The position numbers and the translations under genes were made by a program. Positions 8,868 through 24,770 of a stretch of 64,000 nt of DNA are shown here, piece by piece (the first letter of the stretch is position 1; every line of letters begins with the position of its first letter). Under the pieces are notes generated by a model that ran no database searches, was not told the origin of the DNA, and worked only from the letters and a program-made list of their open reading frames with translations. The DNA comes from Escherichia coli O157:H7 (GTDB lineage: Bacteria; Pseudomonadota; Gammaproteobacteria; Enterobacterales; Enterobacteriaceae), in assembly GCF_013167455.1 (NCBI RefSeq), contig NZ_CP038328.1; one strand, given 5' to 3'.

Positions 8868-11853
8868 TTATTCAAACAGGGCTTCAATATCGTTAATTAG
8901 CTCGCTGGCGGTGATGGCATCGAGTACGGAGAACTGCGCTTCCTGTGTTGAATTACTCCCCCAGCCATAGCTTTCTGCGTTGCCTTCCCATAGCCACAGC
9001 TTGCTTAAGATTTGCTCGGCACTCAGTTCGGCTGGCGACATGCCTACCGCAAAACCTTCATCGATTTCCATGATTAACGACCAGCGGCCCAGAGGTTTGA
9101 TCATCCAGCCGATCCAGCCTCCATCCTGCGGGGTGCCCTTTATCCAGCCTTTATTCGCCAGCCCCATGACCCGACCGCTCGGGCATTTTCTGCCTGCCCA
9201 GCGGGTCAGTTCGCTGGCGTTGCGCTCGGCTTCTGTCAGGGCGTAACTGTTACGGTCAAGCTGACGGAACGGTGGTAGCAGTTCATAGTCGGCAAAAAGC
9301 TGACCAAAGGCGGTAGCATCCGTCGGTGATATTTCCAGAACGTGAGGAATGCCAACAGAGATATCGCCTTCCGGCAGGGTGAAAAGATCATCGTCAGCGG
9401 TGCTGTAGCTGTTATCTTCCGCCACGCGGAAGCACGTCAGTAGCTGGTTTTCGGTGCTATAAACGCCCCAAATCAGACGGCGGGTTAAGTGGCGTACCAG
9501 TGGATGTTCAACCAGGAAGAGCTGAAAGTTTTCTGGCGACCAGCGGCGACGCAGGCACATGGCGGATTCCAACCTTGCTACCTGCTGGGCGGCGACGGTA
9601 CGCGCATCTTTTTTCAGCAGTTTGTAGCGGTTAACAGCATCGTTCGCCTGTGATTCATCATCGCTTTTGTTTGGTTTGGGCAGGTCTTTCAGACGGCTGC
9701 CAGAAACATCACGCACAAACGGTTTTAAGGTTTCATCAAAGCTGACGGTGAACTGGCGTGAGCCGAAATCCAGCAGCAACGAACCGTTATCATCCAGACC
9801 GAGATCCGGTGCTAACCGATCTTCAAGCTCTGCCACCGTGAGTTCGCGGCTTTCGGCAATGCCGGCAATTTTTTCTTTTGCCCGCTCCTGTAATGCTTTG
9901 AATTTCAGTTTCTGGGCAATACCGTTAAGCTGCATCAGGGCGATATCACTACCGATAGCGGCGAGAATATCCAACCCAACGGTGGCGCGTTTATGCTGGG
10001 ATTCACCAGGCCAGGCGCGTATTAATGGCGTCAGTTTGCGGGCGGTGTCATCGTTACCAAGAACGCCTAACGCAGTGAACGCCCAACTCTCTTTCGACGG
10101 TGCGCCCGCAGTCAGCCAGGCGGTAAACAGATCCCAGGCAAATTCAGCCAGTGAGTCGGCGGTACAGGCATCTTTCACCTGCAATAATCCCGGATACAGG
10201 GCCTCTTCCTGAGGGAAGCGGAGCATTTCACCGAGGTGCTGGAGTGCGCTATCTGGCAGTACCTTGCTGCTATTTTTGAGTTTCGGGCGAGTCCATAATG
10301 GAGGTTGATAAAACAACGGTAAAGGGGGGATTTTCGCCGGGTATTTACCCACAGGACTGTTGTCGTTATTTTTATTTTGAGTTTCCCAGGGCGGCGAGAC
10401 TAGTACCATTGGTAGAATTTCTGAGTTTGCAAAATCTTCATTGCGACTATTCAGCAATTGCTGACATTGTTGCAATAAATTTGCCGCTTGCGACGATAAT
10501 CCGATGACTAATTTTTCGACAAATAAAGGATTTGCATTAAGTAATGAAACCAGCAATGTATGTTTGCGTTTATCATCTTTTTTTACCAATGCTTCGGCTA
10601 ATGCCACTATCGTTGCAGAAGGAAAATTTTCGGCACTTTTTATTCGTAATGGCCAACGGATGATTAATACATTTCAGTACGTCACCGCAATTATCTTCTT
10701 CAGCATAGGGAGTCAGGCGAGCCAGTGCCGCTATACCTTGCTCCCGTAATACCGTAGCTGACCAACTGGCACCATAGGTGTTAAATACATCAATGTATTG
10801 ATAGTTCTCCAGTATTTCGAGCGTGAATGGATCTGTCGCTACCAGTTTCAACATTTCAAGTTGTGGAACATCTGCGACCTGGTGTAAACGATGTACGATC
10901 TCATGGGCCACTTCGGGTATTTCTGGCATTAAAATGGCAATTAACGGTTGGCGATAGAGTGATATATCTGGTAACGCAACGAGTAATTTTGCAATGCAAT
11001 TTTGCCATACTTCTTCTTCTGCTAGTGATAAATGTTTACGCAGACGTAAACTAAATTTGTCGTTATTCCTTCTATAACTGTCCTTGCTGCTATCTGCATA
11101 ATTAATAAAGAAAGTCAAATGTTCATCTTTATAGTCAAAATCGAAATCAATTTGCCACCAGAAGATGACAGTTTCAGTTGCGTATTCGATACCGAAGGTG
11201 CTTACAATTTCATCCAGCAACTCGGATGAGGTTTCATCATTCCAGCCCTGACAAAAACATATTTCCAGAAAAGTAAGTACCGCCATAGTACGCGCGGGTA
11301 TCTCAGTCTTTTGGGCCTTAATTAAGCTGATTGCCTGGCTAATCGCATCAGCCCATTCATCAGAGCATGAGCTGTAATCGAAAGTCAGATTTTTATAATA
11401 ATGATAAGTACGATTTGCCAATCGGGAAATTAAATTTTGTTTCTCGGGTTTGGTTGGTTTTTTTACTGGCTCTCCCGGCCAAAGGCGGTGGCTGAGGGCA
11501 TGGCGGGCAATATTCGGGGGAAGAATAATGGGATCGTTGTCTGCCAGCCAGGGTAAACCATTAGTTGCTGCCTGGCGATTTATTGAGGCTTTTTCCTCTG
11601 TGACCAGGACTTTCTTTGCTGAGGCATCATGTGAGTGAGCGTTAGCGTCTACTTGCTCCACATACCCCTTCTTCACCTTCTCCGCAATCAGCTTCAGTGC
11701 TGCTTTTTCCGCCGCCGCAGTATCTGCAAAGCTTTTTACCTGACTTTGCCCGTTGGTACCGACTTTACCCCAGTTAATATGCAGCTCGTTTCCCTGCTGC
11801 TCCACCGCCCAGAATTTATGTGATTTTTCGTCCTGATAAATATAGGTTTTCAT
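8868..11853 (-). pseudogene. molR/yehI-family paralog with WGR N-terminal domain, disrupted by a frameshift near 10575-10675
   Basis: Track ORFs 10573..11853 (MKTYIYQDEKSHKFWAVEQQGNELHINWGKVG...) and 8868..10607 overlap in different frames. The first frame matches yehI up to INHP, the second resumes at ENFPSAT, consistent with a single indel; the downstream piece begins at GTG, not ATG. Confidence 0.6.
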
Positions 11854-11865
11854 TGTTAAATCCTT

Positions 11866-14800
11866 TTAATCAAACAGTGATTCAATGTCGTTAATCAGCT
11901 CGCTGGCGGTGATGTCGTCGAGCATGGAGAAAGTGAGTGAGGATTGTTTACCGTAGCGATCATCTGGCGAGGTGATTTTTACGCTTTCAACCGGGTGCTG
12001 GTCGCCATACCCCGTTTCACCATAAATTAATGAAAAAGGTTCCGTTTCAAGTTCGAGATCGCCATGAGGGGTTGTTTTGCGCATCGCATAAACGCTGCCG
12101 CTTTCTTCCAGACGTTGCCAGCCTCTGCGTTCCAGCCCGACAATGCGTCCGGCCTGGCAAAGCCGTCCTTGCCAGCGTGTCAGTTCGTGAGTATTACGTT
12201 CATTATCAGCAAGGTGATAGCTACCTCGCTCGAGCTGTTGGAAAGGGGGAAGCAGTTCGTAATCAGCGTAAATTTGCCTGAATGCAGCGGCGGATTCAGG
12301 GGATATTTCCAGCACATGCGGAATACCGATGTTTCCTGCTGGCAGCGTGAATAACTCATCCTGCGCATCGCTGTAAGTGCTGTCTTCTGCCACGCGAAAA
12401 CAGGTGATAAGGGCGTTTTCATCGTTATAAACCCCCCATAACAGCCGTCGGGTTAAGTGACGTACCAGCGGATGCTCCACCAGAAACAGGCGGAACTGCT
12501 CTGCCGTCCAGCGTCTGCGCTGGCACATAGCCTGTTCCAGACGATCAATCTGCTGGCTGGCTATGGCGCGTACATCTTTTTTCAACTGTTTGAAGAGATT
12601 AACCGCGTCAGTTGCCTGAGTTTTTTCATCGCTCTGGTTTGGCTTAGGTAAATCTTTCAGGACTTTGCCGTTTGCATCGCACACTACAGGTTTTAAGGTT
12701 TCGTCAAAACCAACGGTGAATTTGCGGGGGCCGAAATCCAGTATCAGCGAGCCACTGCTATCAAGCCCTAAATCTGGAGCCAGGCGGTCTTCCAGTTCAG
12801 CCATAGTCAGCCCACGGTTTTCAGCAACTATGTTGATTTTCTCGCGGGCATGTTCCTGTAATGCTTTGAATTTAATTTTTCGCGCGATGCCATTAAGCAG
12901 CATTAGCGCAACATCGCTGCCAATATCAGCTAATACATCCAGCCCGGACACCGCCCGTTTATGCTGGGATTCCCCAGGCCAGGCGCGGATAAGCGGGGTT
13001 AATTTACGCGCGGTGTCGTCATTGCCTAAAATCCCAAGCGAAGTAAATGCCCAGTTTTCTTTTGCGGGTGCGCCAGCTTCTGTCCAGGCGGGATACAGAT
13101 CCCAGCCAAATTCAGCCAGTGATTCGCGGGTGAAGATTTCTCTAATGATATCCAGCCCAGCGTAGGCGGTAATGTCGCGAGGAAAGCTCAGCATAGTGCC
13201 GAGGTGGCGCATAGCGTCATCTGACAGAGGCAGGTTGTTACTTTTAAGCCGTGGTCTGCGCCACAAGGTGAACTGATAAAAGCCGGGCAGTGGGGCGATT
13301 TTAGCGGGATATTCTTCCAGTGGGTCGCTATCGAACAATGTTGCCAGCGCAGCTAAAACATCAGGTTGATTATATCCTTGCGCGATTTCCTCAATCGTTT
13401 CTCGCTGGTTTAAATTCACCAGCAGACGAAGCGCCTGGCGGGCACAATCACGATCTTTTCCTTTTTTGCCCAGGGCCACAGGAAGCAGCCCGGCGGCGGC
13501 ATGGCGTGGATAATCAGTTAGCCAGTTTCGCGCATCTTCATAAGACATTTTTTTCTGTAATTGTTGCGCCATCGGTAAGGCCAGTTCACTGACACCGAGG
13601 AAAAAGGGGAAGAAGCACAGACGTCGTGGATCACGTTGCAGGCAGGCCATAAATGCAGGTATGGCGGCGCTACCAAAAATTGCCAGAATATTTCCCTCAC
13701 CAGAGTAGTTATCTTCTTTGACTATCTGGTTAAGAAAAGAAATGGCCTGTTGACCAGGCAGGTAACAGAGGGCAATGAGATTCCAGCTTTTGTATGCATT
13801 GTTATGATAATGCACAAATTCAGCATTGAGTGCTGGAAAATCGAAGCGTAGCAGGGCATCAACGGCGCTTTGTGGCGCCGGAATTTTTTCGTATATTTTT
13901 TCTCCGCTCTCCCGCCATTTTTCAAAACCAAGATGCCACAGTATTTGTTGCTCCGGTGTAAGCGGTATTAAGTGTTTCTCCCAGCTTGCTTTTTTGATCG
14001 GCGGCAGGTCGGTAAACAATGTTTGTTTTGTCGCCTGCTGTTGGGCTATTTGCTGGAAGTGGGTGACAAGGTAAGTACGGGTCAGTTTTTTGGTAATCTC
14101 TGGAGTGACATCAGAAACAGAAGGAACTGGAAGCACTGGAAGATCAAACACAGGCGTATTTTTCTTTTTCTCTTTGGTCATCCAGGGCGGCGAAACAAGC
14201 AGCTCCGGCAACATATCCACAGTGGCATATTCACATTCTTCAGCGACTGACTGCGGACGACATTCAGATAAGATGCCTGCCGCTTTAGCATTAACCCAGG
14301 GAATGACGTCGCATACTAACTCTGGCGTGGCGGTAATCAGTTTGACAAGCGCTTTACGCCACTCTTTATCTTCATGTATTGCCAGCAAAGTAGCATAAGC
14401 CGCAATAGCCGCAGCGGGATGCTTTTGACTGGCCTTGCTTAAGTATTCCAGGTGCTTTTTCTTACCAATTACACCGAGGATCAGAATTTGAATCGCATCC
14501 GGGTGATTCGTTTTCCATAGCCATTTGACAAGATTTTCAGTCTCGCTGATGCGTTCGAAGAGATAAGTGGGATTGTCAGAATGGTCTTCCGTAAACTCAA
14601 GAAGTATCCGGCTTACACCGCGCACCCCATTATTTGCCAACAACATTGCCAGATAAGCGCGAAAATTACGAAAATCACGATACAACGGTGGGAAGTCGTA
14701 TTTTTCCACTGTACTCAGAGCAGTATCATCGGTTATCACCAGTCTTAACCAGGTCATCGCCGGGACGTTTTGGTCTGCATAGCGTAGATCTATAGCATGG

Positions 14801-15675
14801 GCGATATCCGGGCGTTCAGGGAGCAGTAACGCCGCAAAAGGTTGCCGTGCGGGGGATAGCGTCGGAATGGCGGTGAGTACTTTATCTACACAGCGTTGCC
14901 ACTCATCTTCTGAAGCGAGTGAAAGATGATGACATAGACGTTGATGCTAACTAGGTAGCGATTCTGCTTCGTGATTAGGTGGAATGATGGTGGTTACTGC
15001 GCCTTTTACTGGTTTATATTTGAGTTGAAGGGCAAAAAGGACGATTTCAACGGCGCTTTCCAGACCACAGCGAATGACTAAGTCATCGACCAGTTCATCT
15101 GCAGAGTAAGAGTTCCAAAAACTCCAGAGCAATGCTGCATCAGATTGCGCACTCCCTGTCTGTTGATTATCCAGAATTCGCCTTTGTAACTCAGCAAAAG
15201 CCTGCTGCCAGTTTTCAGGATAAGAGCGGTAATTGTTGTCGGGATCATATGCCCTGGTGTTATCTGCAATACGCTTCCATATCTCACCGTCTTTGCGCAG
15301 ATAATTGATCTCTCTGGGGCGAGAGCGATGAGGAAAAGCAAATCGGTTAATATCGTCAGTTACCGGAATAACTGCATCATCAGCCAGCCACGGGCGTTGG
15401 TTTTTACTCTCAGGGGAAGTTTCAACTTCAGGAGTGGCTTTGGTGATGGGGGGGATATGCACGTTTGCTGAAGCATTTTCCACATAGCCTTTTTTCGTTT
15501 TCTCCGCGATAAGCTTCAGTTTCGCTTTTTCCGCTGCTGCAACATCCGCAAAACTTTTTATCTGGCTTTGCCCGTTAGTGCCGACTTTGCCCCAGTTGAT
15601 ATGCAGCTCGTTTCCCTGCTGCTCAACCGCCCAGAATTTATGTGATTTTTCGTCCTGATAGATAAAGTGTCTCAT
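11866..15675 (-). pseudogene. molR: molR-like giant protein (WGR domain N-terminus), interrupted by one in-frame TAG at 14947-14949
   Basis: Track ORFs 14947..15675 and 11866..14757 lie in the same minus frame; the 189 nt between them are open in that frame. 1269 codons end to end, close to the ~1264 aa I recall for intact MolR. N-terminus MRHFIYQDEKSHKFWAVEQQGNELHINWGKVG. Confidence 0.65.
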
Positions 15676-15815
15676 TCTGCATCCCTGTAATTTTATCCAG
15701 TTGAATGCAGATGCTACCAGTATTTATACGGGTTAGAGAGAGACAAAATCGTAAGAAAACAACTTTAGGAATTTATAAAGAAAAGGCGCTGTCGATGCAG
15801 CGCCTTGAAGGGGGA

Positions 15816-17849
15816 TTATTTCACCTGATGACCCGGTTTAGCACCGGCATCCGGGCTTAGCAGGAAAATATCTTTCCCGCCAGGACCGGCAGCCATCACC
15901 ATGCCTTCAGAGATACCGAAGCGCATTTTACGTGGTGCCAGGTTAGCCACCATAATGGTGTGACGACCAATCAGTGCCTGCGGATCTGGGTAAGCAGAAC
16001 GAATGCCGGAGAAGACATTGCGTTTTTCACCGCCGAGATCCAGCGTCAGGCGTAGCAGTTTGTCAGAACCTTCAACAAACTCTGCGTTTTCAATCAGCGC
16101 CACGCGCAGGTCAACTTTGGCGAAGTCGTCAAAGGTGATGGTTTCCTGAATCGGATCATCTGCCAGTGGGCCAGTAACTGGCGCGGCAGCTGCTTTCACT
16201 TCTTCTTTAGACGCTTCCACCAGTGCTTCAACCTGCTTCATATCGATGCGGTTATACAGCGCCTTGAACGGATTCACTTTGTGGCCCAGCAGCGGTTGCT
16301 GGATACCATCCCAGGTCAGTTCTGTATTGAGAAATGCTTCTGCGCGCTCGGTCAGTTTCGGCAGTACCGGCTTCAGGTAAGTCATCAGCACGCGGAACAG
16401 GTTGATGCCCATTGAGCAAATCGCCTGCAGGTCAGCATCGCGGCCTTCCTGTTTTGCCACCACCCACGGAGCCTGTTCATCGACATAGCGGTTAGCCAGA
16501 TCAGCCAGCGCCATGATTTCGCGCACTGCTTTACCAAATTCGCGGCTTTCCCACGCTTCACCAATCACTTCAGCGGCATCAGTGAAGGTTTTGTACAACT
16601 GCGGGTCAGCCAGTTCGCTTGCCAGCACGCCGTCAAAACGCTTGTTGATAAAGCCCGCATTACGAGAGGCCAGGTTAACCACTTTGTTAACGATATCGGC
16701 ATTCACGCGCTGAACGAAATCTTCCAGGTTGAGATCGATATCATCAATGCGCGAAGAGAGTTTCGCAGTGTAGTAGTAACGCAGGCTGTCGGCGTCAAAA
16801 TGATTCAGCCAGGTGCTGGCTTTAATAAAGGTACCGCGAGACTTAGACATCTTCGCGCCGTTCACCGTCACATAGCCATGAACAAACAGGTTGGTCGGCT
16901 TGCGGAAGTTGCTGCCTTCCAGCATTGCTGGCCAGAACAGACTGTGGAAGTAAACAATATCTTTACCGATGAAGTGGTACAGCTCGGCGGTGGAGTCTTT
17001 CTTCCAGTATTCATCGAAGCTTACGCTGTCGCCGCGCTTGTCGCACAGATTCTTGAAAGAACCCATATAGCCAATCGGCGCATCCAGCCAGACGTAGAAA
17101 TATTTACCCGGCGCGTTCGGAATTTCAAAACCGAAGTACGGCGCGTCGCGGGAGATATCCCACTGTTGCAGACCGGATTCAAACCACTCCTGCATTTTAT
17201 TTGCCACCTGCTCCTGCAACGCACCGCTGCGGGTCCATGCCTGCAACATTTCGCTGAAAGAGGGCAGATCAAAGAAGAAGTGTTCAGAATCACGCATTAC
17301 CGGGGTAGCGCCAGAAACCACCGATTTCGGCTCGATCAGTTCAGTCGGGCTGTAGGTCGCGCCGCAGACTTCGCAGTTATCGCCGTATTGATCCGGGGAT
17401 TTACATTTCGGGCAGGTGCCTTTCACAAAACGGTCCGGCAGGAACATGCCTTTTTCCGGATCGTACAGCTGAGAGATGGTGCGGTTTTTAATAAAACCGT
17501 TTTCTTTCAAGCGAGTATAGATAAGCTCAGACAACTGGCGGTTCTCTTCGCTGTGCGTCGAGTGATAGTTGTCATAGCTGATGTTAAAGCCTGCGAAATC
17601 AGTCTGATGCTCCTGACTCATTTCGCCAATCATCTGCTCCGGGGTGATACCAAGCTGCTGAGCTTTCAGCATGATCGGTGTACCGTGGGCATCGTCGGCG
17701 CAGATGAAGTTGACCTCGTGGCCGCGCATTCGCTGGTAACGGACCCAGACATCAGCCTGGATGTGCTCCAGCATATGGCCGAGGTGGATTGAGCCGTTAG
17801 CGTACGGCAGTGCGCACGTCACCAGAATTTTCTTCGCGACTTGAGTCAT
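15816..17849 (-). CDS. metG: Methionine--tRNA ligase
   Basis: Track ORF with HIGH motif ([14 protein letters not shown]) and KMSKS; start at [19 protein letters not shown] gives 677 aa. Confidence 0.95.
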
Positions 17850-17980
17850 AGTAGGCATTACTTCTTAATAGTGAAAAGGGGTTAGATAGTACCAAATGGG
17901 AAAATGTTAAGTAAGTACTTCTCTATATTCTTCAGGTAAACTATCAGCTGATGGTTTATCTATACAAAAAAGGAGTCGGG

Positions 17981-19090
17981 ATGAACGAACAATCCCAGGC
18001 CAAATCACCAGAAGCCTTGCGCGCAATGGTCGCCGGGACACTGGCCAATTTTCAGCACCCAACCCTGAAGCATAACCTCACCACGCTGAAAGCGTTGCAC
18101 CATGTCGCCTGGATGGACGACACGTTGCATGTGGAACTGGTTATGCCATTCGTCTGGCATAGCGCGTTTGAAGAGTTAAAAGAGCAATGTAGCGCCGAAC
18201 TGCTGCGTATCACCGGGGCGAAAGCTATCGACTGGAAACTGTCGCACAATATCGCCACCTTAAAACGCGTGAAGAATCAGCCGGGTATTAATGGCGTGAA
18301 GAACATCATTGCGGTCAGTTCCGGTAAAGGCGGCGTGGGTAAATCCTCCACGGCGGTAAACCTGGCGCTGGCACTGGCGGCGGAAGGGGCGAAAGTCGGC
18401 ATTCTGGACGCCGATATCTACGGCCCATCAATTCCCACCATGCTGGGCGCAGAAAATCAGCGTCCAACTTCGCCGGACGGTACCCATATGGCACCGATTA
18501 TGTCTCATGGCCTGGCAACCAATTCAATTGGTTATCTGGTCACTGACGACAATGCGATGGTGTGGCGTGGACCGATGGCGAGCAAGGCGTTAATGCAGAT
18601 GTTGCAGGAAACCTTGTGGCCGGATCTCGACTATCTGGTGCTTGATATGCCGCCAGGCACCGGTGACATTCAATTGACGCTGGCGCAAAACATTCCAGTA
18701 ACTGGTGCAGTCGTGGTCACCACCCCGCAGGACATCGCGTTGATCGATGCGAAAAAAGGCATTGTGATGTTCGAGAAAGTCGAGGTTCCGGTGCTCGGTA
18801 TTGTCGAGAACATGAGTGTGCATATTTGCAGTAACTGTGGTCACCATGAACCGATTTTCGGTACCGGTGGTGCAGAGAAACTGGCTGAAAAATACCATAC
18901 ACAGCTGCTGGGGCAGATGCCGTTACACATCTCCTTACGTGAGGATCTCGATAAAGGCACGCCAACGGTTATCAGCCGTCCGGAGAGCGAATTTACCGCT
19001 ATCTACCGCCAGCTGGCTGACCGCGTTGCAGCTCAGCTCTACTGGCAGGGTGAAGTCATTCCAGGCGAGATTTCCTTCCGCGCGGTCTAA
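17981..19090 (+). CDS. mrp: Fe-S cluster carrier ATPase Mrp/ApbC
   Basis: Start MNEQSQAKSPE after SD aaggag; P-loop SGKGGVGKSS; CxxC motif (CSNCGH); 369 aa; divergent from metG. Confidence 0.9.
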   Translation: MNEQSQAKSPEALRAMVAGTLANFQHPTLKHNLTTLKALHHVAWMDDTLHVELVMPFVWHSAFEELKEQCSAELLRITGAKAIDWKLSHNIATLKRVKNQPGINGVKNIIAVSSGKGGVGKSSTAVNLALALAAEGAKVGILDADIYGPSIPTMLGAENQRPTSPDGTHMAPIMSHGLATNSIGYLVTDDNAMVWRGPMASKALMQMLQETLWPDLDYLVLDMPPGTGDIQLTLAQNIPVTGAVVVTTPQDIALIDAKKGIVMFEKVEVPVLGIVENMSVHICSNCGHHEPIFGTGGAEKLAEKYHTQLLGQMPLHISLREDLDKGTPTVISRPESEFTAIYRQLADRVAAQLYWQGEVIPGEISFRAV

Positions 19091-19120
19091 CGCCTATTAA
19101 CCATTCTGGTTATTCTTCAT

Positions 19121-19161
19121 ACACCGCAGAGATGTTATATTGATGCGGTGTATTTGTTTTT
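19121..19161 (+). terminator. Intrinsic terminator downstream of mrp
   Basis: Stem acaccgca(19121-19128)/tgcggtgt(19144-19151) followed by T-run 19153-19161. Confidence 0.6.
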
Positions 19162-19351
19162 GCCGCATTAATGAACACTTATTTAATACTGCGAATATTC
19201 AGTGGATCTTAGTCCGAAACTGTACAAAGGCGATTGATTGTGCAACCACTGTCTCTTTATCATCCCTCGTGGCTGTGTAGCGGATGTACAGCTATAGTGT
19301 GTTATGCACTCAATCTACCCGGCATAACCTTTACTACAGGGATAACGTTCA

Positions 19352-19633
19352 ATGAATAAGTATTGGTTGTCAGGAGCTGTTTTTCTTGCTTATGGACTAG
19401 CATCACCCGCGTTCTCTTCTGATACTACAACATTAACCATCAATGGCAGAATTAGTTCCCCTACATGCAGTATGGATGTTGTTAATAATCATCTTCAGCA
19501 ACGTTGTGGGCAGTTGTTACAACGAGTTGAAACCAACTATCGTGCTTCTTCTACTGCAAAAGGCGTTACGACAGAAGTGGTAGCTGTGGGTAATAACGAC
19601 AAACGCAAAATCGTGTTAAATCGCTACGATTAA
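19352..19633 (+). CDS. yehE: YehE, small secreted protein upstream of the yeh fimbrial operon
   Basis: 93-aa ORF with signal peptide MNKYWLSGAVFLAYGLASPAFS; position between mrp and yehD. Confidence 0.7.
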   Translation: MNKYWLSGAVFLAYGLASPAFSSDTTTLTINGRISSPTCSMDVVNNHLQQRCGQLLQRVETNYRASSTAKGVTTEVVAVGNNDKRKIVLNRYD

Positions 19634-19924
19634 TTTGCCAACACCGTTTTAAGCATATTTAAAAAGCCAAAATCATTCCTATGAATGATTTCGGCTTTTT
19701 TATTCATCCCATAAATGTTATTTACGGTAATTTACGGTAATTAATCAGTTTCAAAAATGTTTGTTATAGCGAATTATTTGTTGTATTTATATTGCATTAG
19801 TTAATTTGTTTTAAATCAACAAAACAATATGTTTACATTGCGGCAACCTTTTTGATGTGAGAAATTTGTTTCCAAGAGATACAGACTCTTAACAAAACAA
19901 AATAAACTTATTAAGGAATGCATC

Positions 19925-20467
19925 ATGAAACATTCAATTATTGCTGTCGCTGTCTTATCTTCTGTATTTATGAGTGCTGGTATTTTCGCTGCTGAAGTAG
20001 ATACCGGAACTTTAACCATTAAAGGTAATATTGCAGAATCACCATGTACATTTGTCGCTGGCGGTGATTCAGTCAGTATTAATATGCCGACTGTACCCAC
20101 CACTGTATTTGATGGTAAAGCGAAATATTCAACTTATGATGGCGCGGTTGGTGTAACCAGCAGTATGCTGAAAATTACTTGTCCGAAGACTATTGATGGC
20201 GTAAAACTTTCGTTGATCACCAACGAGAAAATTCTTGGTAATGATAAGGCAATATCCAGTAGTAATGACACAGTTGGATACTATCTCTATTTGGGAGATA
20301 GCAGTGACGTACTGGATATTTCCGCACCATTTAATATTGAAAGTTATAAAACTGCTGATGGACAATATGCAATACCGTTTAAGGCAAAATATCTGAAGTT
20401 GACTGACAGTGGTGTTGCATCTGGTACAGTTAACTCTTCATTGGTTATGCGTGTTGCCCAGGATTAA
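19925..20467 (+). CDS. yehD: Fimbrial major subunit YehD
   Basis: 180-aa ORF, signal peptide ending FA|AEV, type-1-fimbrial-subunit-like; first gene of a chaperone-usher cluster; SD aaggaa. Confidence 0.85.
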   Translation: MKHSIIAVAVLSSVFMSAGIFAAEVDTGTLTIKGNIAESPCTFVAGGDSVSINMPTVPTTVFDGKAKYSTYDGAVGVTSSMLKITCPKTIDGVKLSLITNEKILGNDKAISSSNDTVGYYLYLGDSSDVLDISAPFNIESYKTADGQYAIPFKAKYLKLTDSGVASGTVNSSLVMRVAQD

Positions 20468-20507
20468 ATATTTAAAATAATCATCTTGTTTTTTCAGTAA
20501 GTTAAAA

Positions 20508-20531
20508 TGGCCGCCATATTCATGGCGGCCA
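20508..20531 (+). promoter_or_regulatory. Perfect 10-bp-stem hairpin between yehD and yehC (no U-run)
   Basis: tggccgccat / attc / atggcggcca; position typical of the stem-loops that set subunit-to-assembly-gene stoichiometry in fimbrial operons. Confidence 0.4.
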
Positions 20532-20554
20532 GCATAAATATAAGAGGCATTAAG

Positions 20555-21229
20555 ATGAAAGGGTTATTATCTTTACTCATCTCTTCTATGATATTCCCCG
20601 TGCATGCCGGAATGGTTATTTTCGGGACCCGTATCATTTACCCGGCAGAGCAGAAAGAGGTCATGGTACAACTGATGAATCAGGGAAACCGCTCTTCGCT
20701 GATGCAGGCGTGGATTGATGATGGCGACACGTCTCTGCCGCCAGAAAAGATTCAGGTTCCTTTCATGTTAACGCCACCAGTAGTGAAAGTAGCGGCCAAT
20801 TCTGGGCAACAAATAAAAATTAAAATCATGCCTAATAAATTACCCAGTAATAAGGAAAGTATTTTTTATCTTAATGTTCTGGATATTCCACCGAATAGCC
20901 CAGAAGATGAAGGAAAGAATGCGTTAAAATTTGCCATGCAAAACAGAATCAAGTTGTTTTACCGACCTGCTGGTATTGCTCCGGTAAATAAAACGACTTT
21001 TAAAAAATTACGAGTGAGTCGTAGCGGTAATAACGTAGTCATAAAAAATGACTCGCCAAATTGGGTAACGATTTCTGATGTTAAGGCTAATAACGTCAAA
21101 GTGAATTATGAAACAATCATGATTGCACCACAAGAAAGTCAGAATGTTAGTGAAAAAAATAATAATGCGAATGGCTGGCAACTGACCATTATCGATGATC
21201 ACGGCAACTATATTAGTGACAAAATTTAA
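20555..21229 (+). CDS. yehC: Periplasmic fimbrial chaperone YehC
   Basis: Start MKGLLSLLISSMIFPVHA after SD aagagg; an upstream in-frame ATG at 20507 would sit inside the hairpin. PapD-like chaperone. Confidence 0.8.
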   Translation: MKGLLSLLISSMIFPVHAGMVIFGTRIIYPAEQKEVMVQLMNQGNRSSLMQAWIDDGDTSLPPEKIQVPFMLTPPVVKVAANSGQQIKIKIMPNKLPSNKESIFYLNVLDIPPNSPEDEGKNALKFAMQNRIKLFYRPAGIAPVNKTTFKKLRVSRSGNNVVIKNDSPNWVTISDVKANNVKVNYETIMIAPQESQNVSEKNNNANGWQLTIIDDHGNYISDKI

Positions 21230-21244
21230 TTGCAGGAGCTGCCT

Positions 21245-23725
21245 ATGTTGAGAATGACCCCGCTTGCATCAGCAATAGTCGCGTTATTGCTCGGCATTGA
21301 AGCACATGCAGCAGAAGAAACCTTTGACACCCATTTTATGATGGGAGGAATGAAAGGTGAGCAAGTAACAAATTTGCGTCTTGATGATAATCAGCCTTTA
21401 CCTGGGCAGTACGACATTGATATTTATGTCAATAAACAATGGCGTGGAAAATATGAGATTATCGTCAAAGATAACCCACATGAAACTTGCCTGACGCGTG
21501 AAATTGTAAAGCGGTTAGGTATAAATAGCGATAATTTTGCACGCGAAAATCAGTGTTTAACATTTGAGCAACTTGTTCAGGGCGGAAGCTACTCCTGGGA
21601 TATTGGGATTTTTCGTTTGGATCTCGCTGTTCCGCAAGCCTGGGTTGAAGAGCTGGAAAATGGTTACGTTCCGCCAGAAAACTGGGAGCGGGGAATCAAT
21701 GCGTTTTATACGTCTTATTACGTAAGTCAGTATTACAGTGACTATAAAGCCTCGGGCAATAGTAAGAGCACTTATGTGCGTTTTAACAGTGGGCTAAATT
21801 TGCTGGGATGGCAGCTGCATTCAGATGCCAGTTTTAGCAAAACGGATAATAATCCTGGTGAGTGGAAAAGCAACACGCTGTATCTGGAGCATGGATTTTC
21901 TCAAATTCTCGGTACGCTGCGTATTGGTGATATGTACACCTCAGCCGATATATTTGATTCCGTTCGCTTCACCGGGGTTCGGTTATTTCGTGATATGCAG
22001 ATGTTGCCAAACTCGAAGCAAAATTTTACCCCACGGGTACAGGGGATTGCCCAGAGTAACGCGTTGGTAACTATTGAACAGAACGGTTTTGTCGTTTATC
22101 AGAAAGAGGTTCCACCAGGTCCGTTTTCGATTAGTGATTTGCAGTTAGCGGGCGGAGGGGCGGATCTTGATGTTAGTGTTAAGGAAGCCGATGGTTCTGT
22201 GACTACGTATCTGGTGCCTTATGCGGCAGTACCTAATATGCTGCAACCTGGTGTATCAAAATATGATTTTGCGGCAGGCCGTAGTCATATTGAAGGTGCG
22301 AGCAAGCAAAGTGATTTTGTCCAGGCGGGTTATCAGTATGGTTTTAATAATTTATTGACGCTGTATGGCGGCACGATGGTTGCTAATAATTACTATGCCT
22401 TTACCCTCGGAACAGGTTGGAACACGCGTATTGGCGCAATTTCAGTCGATGCAACTAAATCGCACAGTAAGCAAGACAATGGTGATGTGTTTGACGGACA
22501 AAGTTATCAAATTGCCTATAACAAATTTTTGAGCCAAACATCAACACGTTTTGGTCTGGCGGCCTGGCGTTATTCGTCGCGTGATTACCGCACATTTAAC
22601 GATTATGTGTGGGCAAATAATAAAGATAATTATCGTCGTGATAAAAACGATGTCTATGATATTGCCGATTATTACCAGAATGATTTTGGTCGCAAAAATA
22701 GCTTTTCCGCCAATATGAGTCAGTCATTGCCAGAAGGCTGGGGATCTGTGTCATTAAGTACTTTATGGCGTGATTACTGGGGGCGAAGCGGCAGTAGTAA
22801 AGATTATCAACTGAGTTATTCCAATAACTGGCGGCGGATAAGCTATACCCTCGCGGCAAGCCAGGCGTATGACGAGAACCACGCCGAAGAGAAACGCTTT
22901 AATATTTTTATATCGATTCCCTTTGACTGGGGCGATGACGTTACGACGCCGCGACGGCAAATATATATGTCTAACTCAACGACCTTTGATGATCAGGGTT
23001 TTGCTTCAAACAATACCGGATTATCGGGAACCGTTGGGAACCGCGATCAGTTTAACTATGGTATCAACTTGAGCCATCAACATCAGGGAAATGAAACGAC
23101 AGCTGGGGCCAATTTGACCTGGACCGCACCGGCCGCAACAGTGAATGGCAGCTATAGTCAGTCGAGTACTTATCGACAGGTCGGAGCCAGTGTTTCAGGG
23201 GGACTGGTTGCCTGGTCTGGTGGCGTTAATCTGGCGAACCGTCTTTCCGAAACGTTTGCTGTGATGCATGCGCCGGGAATCAAAGATGCTTATGTCAATG
23301 GGCAAAAATATCGTACAACAAACTGTAATGGTGTGGTGGTGTACGACGGACTGACACCTTATCGGGAAAATCACCTGATGATGGATGTGTCGCAAAGCGA
23401 TAGCGAAACAGAATTACGCGGGAACCGTAAAATGACCGCCCCTTATCGCGGCGCGGTCGTTCTGGTTGATTTTGATACCGATCAGCGTAAGCCCTGGTTT
23501 ATAAAAGCATTAAGATCCGATGGACAGCCATTAACGTTTGGTTATGAAGTCAATGATATGCATGGTCATAACATTGGTGTTGTCGGCCAGGGCAGTCAGA
23601 TATTTATTCGCACCAATGAAATACCGCCAGCGGTTAATGTGGCAATTGATAAGCAACAAGGGCTTTCATGCACAATCACCTTCGGTAAAGAGATTGATGA
23701 AAGTAAAAATTATATCTGTCGGTGA
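21245..23725 (+). CDS. yehB: Outer-membrane fimbrial usher YehB
   Basis: Start MLRMTPLASAIVALLLGIEAHA (SD caggag); 826 aa. Confidence 0.85.
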   Translation: MLRMTPLASAIVALLLGIEAHAAEETFDTHFMMGGMKGEQVTNLRLDDNQPLPGQYDIDIYVNKQWRGKYEIIVKDNPHETCLTREIVKRLGINSDNFARENQCLTFEQLVQGGSYSWDIGIFRLDLAVPQAWVEELENGYVPPENWERGINAFYTSYYVSQYYSDYKASGNSKSTYVRFNSGLNLLGWQLHSDASFSKTDNNPGEWKSNTLYLEHGFSQILGTLRIGDMYTSADIFDSVRFTGVRLFRDMQMLPNSKQNFTPRVQGIAQSNALVTIEQNGFVVYQKEVPPGPFSISDLQLAGGGADLDVSVKEADGSVTTYLVPYAAVPNMLQPGVSKYDFAAGRSHIEGASKQSDFVQAGYQYGFNNLLTLYGGTMVANNYYAFTLGTGWNTRIGAISVDATKSHSKQDNGDVFDGQSYQIAYNKFLSQTSTRFGLAAWRYSSRDYRTFNDYVWANNKDNYRRDKNDVYDIADYYQNDFGRKNSFSANMSQSLPEGWGSVSLSTLWRDYWGRSGSSKDYQLSYSNNWRRISYTLAASQAYDENHAEEKRFNIFISIPFDWGDDVTTPRRQIYMSNSTTFDDQGFASNNTGLSGTVGNRDQFNYGINLSHQHQGNETTAGANLTWTAPAATVNGSYSQSSTYRQVGASVSGGLVAWSGGVNLANRLSETFAVMHAPGIKDAYVNGQKYRTTNCNGVVVYDGLTPYRENHLMMDVSQSDSETELRGNRKMTAPYRGAVVLVDFDTDQRKPWFIKALRSDGQPLTFGYEVNDMHGHNIGVVGQGSQIFIRTNEIPPAVNVAIDKQQGLSCTITFGKEIDESKNYICR

Positions 23726-23735
23726 GAGGTGAAAT

Positions 23736-24770
23736 ATGATGTTCAGAAATAGAATATTACTAATATTTATATTGTGGGCTAATTTTACCTGGGCTGGGTG
23801 TCGTACTACTGCATCATTAAATATTACAGATGGTATTAATGTTGGGGAGATTTTAGCGAATGAAACTTCCTTTAGTAAAAGTGTCGTGTTTACTGGGATA
23901 TCTTGTGATACGAGCACGGATAAAATAGTTTATAAAAATATCCAAAGTGATTGGGTTGAAGTTGGGCCTTTTGGTAATGGCGAAAAATTAAAGGTTAAAA
24001 TAGAGTCTTTAGGTAAAACCAGCGACACAATTGGGAAATCCAGCAATGCGCAGGCAGTATTACCTTATGTGGTTAAAATAGCCAGAGGCACACCTGATTT
24101 TACTGGAGAAAGAAAATCTACCTGGTTTATTTCAGATACCGTGATTGCAAATATTGGCGGTGAGTCATCGTCATCCATCGATTTTTGGTTGGGTATTTGT
24201 AAGGCATTGAAGTTTAACTGGTGTGTGAATTATCTCACCAGCAAACTGGCGGGGGATACATTTACGCTTGGGTTAAATATTTCCTATTATCCTAAAAATA
24301 CGACCTGTAAGCCTGAAAACACCGTTATAAAAGTAGATGATATCGCCTTGTTCCAGCTCAGAAATCAGGGAAAGATTGCGGCGAACAGTAAGGAAGGAAC
24401 AATTACGTTGAAATGTGATAATCTTTTCGGCGACAAAAAACAAGCATCGCGGAATATGGTTGTATATCTTTCTAGCAGTGACTTAGTTAAAGGAAGTAAT
24501 ACTATTTTGCGTGGTAAAACAGATAATGGTGTAGGGTTTGTGTTGGATCTAACAGAACCACCAAAAGGGACTGAGGCTGCCATTAAAATTTCGGCCAACG
24601 GCGATCAGGGCGCGGCGACATCATTATGGAAAACAGATAAACCAGGAGTTTCATTAAATAGCAACATTATTAATATACCAGTCATGGCCAGTTACTATGT
24701 ATATGATGAAAAAAAAGTTAAATCTGGCGCACTGGAAGCAACCGCATTAATCAACGTGAAATACGATTAA
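23736..24770 (+). CDS. yehA: Fimbrial adhesin-like protein YehA
   Basis: 344-aa ORF with signal peptide, last gene of the cluster. Confidence 0.8.
   Translation: MMFRNRILLIFILWANFTWAGCRTTASLNITDGINVGEILANETSFSKSVVFTGISCDTSTDKIVYKNIQSDWVEVGPFGNGEKLKVKIESLGKTSDTIGKSSNAQAVLPYVVKIARGTPDFTGERKSTWFISDTVIANIGGESSSSIDFWLGICKALKFNWCVNYLTSKLAGDTFTLGLNISYYPKNTTCKPENTVIKVDDIALFQLRNQGKIAANSKEGTITLKCDNLFGDKKQASRNMVVYLSSSDLVKGSNTILRGKTDNGVGFVLDLTEPPKGTEAAIKISANGDQGAATSLWKTDKPGVSLNSNIINIPVMASYYVYDEKKVKSGALEATALINVKYD

Follow-up and report, generated by a model that had tools for sequence, protein, structure and literature searches.

The gene adjacent to metG in the yeh cluster of E. coli K-12, molR, is annotated as two loci: yehF (b2115), a protein-coding gene for a WGR protein of 274 residues, and the pseudogene yehH (b4499). 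In K-12, molR appears among the members of the SOS regulon (PMC6590174), and BglJ-RcsB acts as its activator (PMC3950696). In a sublineage of ST131, the resistance transposon TnMB1860 was described in the metG/DUF4132/yeh region (PMC9334617). Apart from these three reports, a search of the literature on molR as a pseudogene, the yeh cluster and DUF4132 yielded almost nothing relevant. Two uninterrupted genes of 1269 residues at the same position, those of FDN-9 (WP_053274648.1) and of the ST131-type EC190759 (WP_329489000.1), are annotated as 'WGR and DUF4132 domain-containing protein'.

Here, the metG-proximal gene of E. coli O157:H7 is compared with these alleles, based on a DNA stretch of 64,000 nucleotides (the window) that spans yehP through metG to yegD. 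The gene is interrupted by an amber codon, and across the amber site the window shows 100% identity to chromosomes of E. coli O157:H7.

Organization of the interrupted gene and its neighbors

Translation of the whole interval 11866-15675 on the minus strand reveals a single in-frame TAG at codon 243, read as CTA at 14947-14949 of the plus strand. The reading frame totals 242 + 1 + 1026 = 1269 codons up to the natural stop, and besides codon 243 there are no stops and no indels across this length. In line with this, the sequence-only reading had placed an amber codon at 14947-14949 within an otherwise open frame of 1269 codons, all of which is borne out by translation. It had also taken the downstream open reading frame as the continuation of the same gene. 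This holds as well, since the frame is uninterrupted in the intact FDN-9 allele, which differs at only 9 of 3810 bases. The features of the gene and of its upstream region are as follows.

14947..14949, minus strand: amber codon TAG, codon 243, derived from TGG (Trp) by a G-to-A change at base 14948 (C-to-T on the plus strand)
14950..15675, minus strand: 5' open reading frame of 242 codons with start codon ATG at 15675-15673, the sole part expected to be translated
about 15469-15660, minus strand: WGR domain (PF05406), residues 6-69, inside the 5' open reading frame
11866..14946, minus strand: rest of the frame downstream of the amber codon, 1026 codons plus the natural stop at 11866-11868
about 12118-12669, minus strand: DUF4132 (PF13569), residues 1003-1186, inside the downstream open reading frame
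15676..15815, minus strand: spacer between metG and the gene, whose promoter region shares 99% identity with the one upstream of K-12 molR/yehF
15806-15783, minus strand: terminator-like hairpin of metG, in the spacer
15702-15683, minus strand: LexA-box-like sequence AACTGGATAAAATTACAGGG of the form CTG-N10-CAG, 8 nt upstream of the start codon

The 242-residue product of the 5' open reading frame matches the WGR profile (PF05406) with E = 1.1e-19 and 70.8 bits, the cut-off being 22. The downstream open reading frame contains a full-length match to DUF4132 (PF13569; profile positions 1-179 of 179, E = 6.6e-52), a domain that is encoded after the amber codon yet presumably untranslated. With an N-terminal WGR and a C-terminal DUF4132 domain, the gene belongs to the WGR plus DUF4132 (MolR/YehI-like) family. 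In searches for structural homologues, the WGR domain alone matches a solved structure (2ra8).

The LexA-box-like sequence AACTGGATAAAATTACAGGG is identical in K-12, ST131 and O55:H7. The strict LexA pattern CTGT-N8-ACAG has no matches in the window. If AACTGGATAAAATTACAGGG functions, the truncated gene of O157 would still be SOS-inducible.

In O157:H7, three tandem paralogues follow metG at distances of 9-12 nt from each other: the amber gene, a middle paralogue and yehI. A further interrupted gene of the cluster, yehM, is located beyond these.

8868..11853, minus strand: middle WGR/DUF4132 paralogue, starting 12 nt past the end of the amber gene
5229..8858, minus strand: yehI, an intact DUF4132 paralogue without WGR domain, starting 9 nt past the end of the middle paralogue
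231..2510, minus strand: yehM (DUF5682), with TAG at codon 510 (981-983), flagged by RefSeq as an internal stop

Because of the 9-12 nt spacings, yehI is probably co-transcribed with the two genes preceding it. Only about 407 of 5426 genomes have the middle paralogue. Compared with FDN-9, it is missing 47 bp at about 10644/10645, resulting in a frameshift, and its 5' open reading frame ends with TGA at 10573-10575. About 300 of the 5426 genomes carry the junction created by this deletion. The stop in yehM (Q510*) replaces CAG (Gln, as in K-12) by TAG, and the exact allele is carried by 299 complete genomes.

PADLOC returned no family match for YehI, YehL, YehM, YehP or YehQ, and for the middle paralogue just a sub-threshold match to WGR_XIII (E = 0.0046). 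Membership of the cluster in a known anti-phage defence system was rejected on the lack of a PADLOC family match.

The spacer between yehK and yehL (3690-4691) contains two direct repeats about 610 nt apart, in copies of 300 nt that are 87% identical. Each repeat holds a match to the OrzO-P antitoxin RNA (Rfam RF02083; 3721-3796 and 4332-4405, minus strand), identifying the zor-orz type I toxin-antitoxin pair, which is unannotated in the RefSeq record examined. In K-12, the yehK-yehL spacer measures just about 300 nt. At a larger scale, ECP19-798 (NZ_CP066756.1) differs from the window by about 28,800 position-wise mismatches and is not collinear with it over the full length, from about 25 kb onward. 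This could reflect an insertion or deletion beyond about 15.7 kb, gene coordinates agreeing up to that point.

Origin and distribution of the amber codon

Codon 243 is TGG in FDN-9, in the ST131-type EC190759 and in O55:H7 CB9615, all of which read ...SLPSWHQRLC... at this position. The closest intact allele is that of FDN-9, which has equal length, is uninterrupted and is 99.8% identical (8 of 1269 codons different). The EC190759 allele is likewise uninterrupted and shares 91% amino-acid identity; for the CB9615 allele the figures are 85% at the amino-acid and 87% at the nucleotide level. Since these three alleles carry TGG, codon 243 went from Trp to amber through a G-to-A transition in the coding strand, not through a change of TTG (Leu). 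The latter origin, TTG to TAG, was the one put forward in the sequence-only reading and is refuted by the TGG codon of FDN-9, EC190759 and CB9615. The Leu assignment arose because the site had been aligned to paralogues (FSLRLRKHLSL versus SLPSWHQRLCHHLSL) across a 2-residue indel, while orthologous alleles have Trp at the site and differ there in length by two residues from the paralogues. The ancestral codon is therefore best read from orthologous alleles, not from paralogues.

Of 5426 complete E. coli genomes, 298 exactly match a 61-mer containing the TAG, and 219 others match the same 61-mer with TGG instead. Among the matches listed, all TAG carriers with a serotype label are O157:H7, including EDL933 and the beta-glucuronidase-positive PV15-279. 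Within the genomes sampled, TAG was seen solely in O157:H7-type genomes, the other alleles examined all having TGG. The amber codon, yehM Q510* and the 47-bp deletion appear to travel together with the O157:H7 clade. Their genome numbers are nearly equal (298, 299 and about 300), and the interrupted gene can serve as a marker of that clade. In RefSeq (PGAP), the O157:H7 gene is labelled a pseudogene, with a note of an internal stop. The chance that faulty sequencing or assembly of one record produced the TAG, a general possibility for any single-base difference, is practically negligible. The identical allele recurs in 298 complete genomes, assembled independently and coming from many laboratories and platforms, which already refutes such an error, and the amber codon is thus a real, inherited allele, as the RefSeq flag also indicates.

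The allele of O55:H7 CB9615 is a different one, in which codon 243 is TGG and a separate stop lies at codon 764; as it has TGG, the O157 lesion is not common to CB9615. In the same strain, the genes for the usher YehB and the chaperone YehC are pseudogenes and yehM is intact (9678-12847 and 17722-24567 of the CB9615 stretch), and the fragments of the split middle paralogue lie about 1.3 kb apart. The allele differences between O55:H7 and O157:H7 would fit an exchange of segments by recombination between lineages.

On the plus strand, the 12-nt stretch CTAACTAGGTAG (14947-14958) carries TAA (14948), TAG (14952) and TAG (14956) in three different frames. The presence of these stops had been pointed out from the sequence alone and is correct, but they have no separate meaning, being a by-product that shows no excess over shuffled sequence. 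The intact allele reads CCAACTAGGTAG there, so that the TAA goes back to the amber's own base change, which is C-to-T when seen from the plus strand. The two TAGs come from reading the codons CTA CCT AGT (Leu-Pro-Ser) in antisense. Across the 64-kb window, 12-nt stretches with stops in all three frames were counted four times on the plus strand and seven times on the minus strand, versus 6.8 ± 2.8 expected from mononucleotide shuffles. Such stretches are uncommon, yet not in excess over chance in the window, and stops on the antisense strand carry no information.

Consequences of the interruption and alternative readings

The gene is very probably a pseudogene resulting from a plain nonsense mutation that arose once in the O157:H7 ancestor and was inherited clade-wide. 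The in-frame stop is absent from the closest intact alleles and the remaining frame is kept, as expected of a nonsense pseudogene. According to this explanation, Trp243 would have changed to amber once in the ancestor of the O157:H7 clade, and the whole lineage would have inherited the change. Translation would stop after 242 residues. The product would then be no more than an N-terminal fragment with the WGR domain, and the 1026 codons beyond the stop, DUF4132 among them, would be lost from it. We infer that no full-length protein is made; polar effects on the closely spaced downstream paralogues are possible. The locus would be a dispensable accessory one in decay, the amber codon being one of three inactivating lesions in the yeh cluster. 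The pseudogene is already known, as it is flagged in RefSeq, and represents ordinary gene decay.

Selection on the locus may have been relaxed. The amino-acid changes derived in O157 are A296D, T862P and L1227H, all downstream of the stop, and T862P strikes a residue that is conserved in every paralogue compared. The intact FDN-9 allele likewise has three changes at conserved sites. The derived changes would fit relaxed constraint, the numbers being too small for proof.

Full-length protein is very unlikely to be still made through readthrough of the amber codon, be it with the help of a suppressor tRNA or through programmed or leaky decoding. The downstream frame is open for 1026 codons, which would be in line with readthrough, but this openness is explained by a recent mutation, the gene being only 9 bases (8 codons) away from an intact allele. 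At this site UAG is followed by C, and UAG followed by C is counted among the weaker terminators. On the other hand, the stop is not conserved, since relatives have TGG, and it is therefore not a recoding site. A second gene of the cluster, yehM, is also interrupted by TAG, in agreement with the sequence-only remark that both large-gene interruptions are TAG. That remark is correct for the amber gene and yehM and missed a third interruption, that of the middle paralogue, whose 5' open reading frame ends with TGA. Of the G:C-to-A:T transition paths to a nonsense codon, 48% in the amber gene and 51% in yehM give TAG, for a joint value of about 0.25, so a pair of nonsense mutations arising by transition would both be TAG in about 25% of cases. 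Moreover, the adjacent paralogue was killed by a 47-bp deletion, a lesion beyond any suppressor. An amber suppressor had been proposed as a check, and searches covering supE-type and supF-type alleles gave no indication of one. The supF-type tyrT (anticodon CTA) is found in 0 of 5426 complete genomes. The supE-type glnV/glnX is present in 155 of 5426, fewer than the 298 TAG carriers, and all supE-type carriers among the 60 matches listed are K-12 laboratory-type. No tRNA genes were found within the 64-kb window. The two TAGs as a hint at suppression were accordingly rejected on the mutation-path counts, the third, non-nonsense lesion and the suppressor searches. Re-initiation was also considered. 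The first in-frame start after the amber codon is the ATG at 14757, 64 codons downstream, and re-initiation there is unsupported, as no Shine-Dalgarno-like sequence was found before it. From these observations, translation is concluded to end at codon 243, though natural readthrough of UAG followed by C at a low level, or re-initiation, may still occur.

Another reading takes the stop to be tolerated or favoured at a module boundary, such that a free-standing WGR module of about 240-275 residues, controlled by SOS and BglJ-RcsB like K-12 YehF, retains an independent function. The K-12 gene is stopped at L275* (TTA to TGA), within two aligned codons of O157 W243*, both stops lying just before the conserved motif RL(R/C)xHLSL, and K-12 yehF is annotated as protein-coding. 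K-12 and O157 also agree at 99% in the promoter region, and the first 242 codons are free of O157-derived amino-acid changes. Yet different types of mutation produced the two stops, in alleles that are only about 39% identical, and a single near-coincidence among few disrupted alleles, with a chance of roughly 1%, is not compelling post hoc; the nearness of W243* and L275* is probably a coincidence. Finding three substitutions all downstream of the stop is expected at about 53% by length alone. Other lineages break the gene elsewhere, as illustrated by the stop at codon 764 of CB9615 and by IS4, IS600/IS1 and IS1203 insertions, all independent breaks in other strains. The lesions of K-12 molR and the TnMB1860 insertion of ST131 count among these repeated inactivations as well. 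In a survey of truncated forms, in which the 242-residue fragment was compared with a large protein database, truncated WGR proteins of 135-423 amino acids were scattered in length, with no pile-up at 242-275, many matches being contig-edge partials. A preferred break point is thus unsupported by this survey. We consider a retained module function improbable, and hold it equally doubtful that the gene 'fissioned' twice at one domain boundary under convergent selection for an SOS-inducible WGR module, as opposed to neutral decay. Neutral decay following a single nonsense mutation remains the preferred explanation, and inactivation is frequent in the metG-yehI slot, a variable locus.

Comparison with K-12 molR and other family members

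The O157 gene resembles K-12 molR in its location in the metG-yehI slot, in its WGR-plus-DUF4132 architecture and in being a pseudogene whose frame is stopped close to where the N-terminal module ends. Upstream, 151 nt are 99% identical, including the LexA-box-like sequence. The coding regions, in contrast, share about 39% amino-acid identity over the first approximately 960 residues (1-966) and 58% over the last 315 (965-1269), and the C-terminal part of K-12 molR is instead 88-95% identical to the O157 middle paralogue. The lesions differ as well, K-12 molR having L275* (TTA to TGA) and a 1-nt insertion at codon 949. The K-12-type allele is found in 3008 of 5426 genomes and the O157/ST131-type allele in 1643 of 5426.

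The two genes thus share slot and promoter, without the close coding identity of an orthologue, for which yehI, at 94%, serves as the benchmark. The name molR, used in the sequence-only reading, is consequently appropriate as to position, promoter and family, but not as to coding identity (about 39% and 58%), the K-12 C-terminal part being nearer to the middle paralogue. Judged by these comparisons, the amber gene corresponds to molR in position and belongs to its family, without being a close orthologue, and the name should not be transferred from K-12 to the O157 allele.

Homology between K-12 and O157 breaks sharply early in the coding region (15673-15820 of the window), the first two codons, ATG AGA, being identical. 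At least two deeply diverged allele classes occupy the metG-yehI slot. The mosaic appearance of K-12 molR suggests recombination among paralogues or diversifying selection.

YehI and the amber gene product have DUF4132 and the central region in common and are about 32% identical over some 1250 residues. YehI differs in being without an N-terminal WGR domain, in being intact in O157:H7 and in its 94% identity between K-12 and O157. The closest likeness is to the proteins of FDN-9 and EC190759 (identities of 99.4% and 91%, respectively, over 1269 residues), which agree with the O157 gene in position and domains and differ from it by TGG at codon 243 and an uninterrupted frame.
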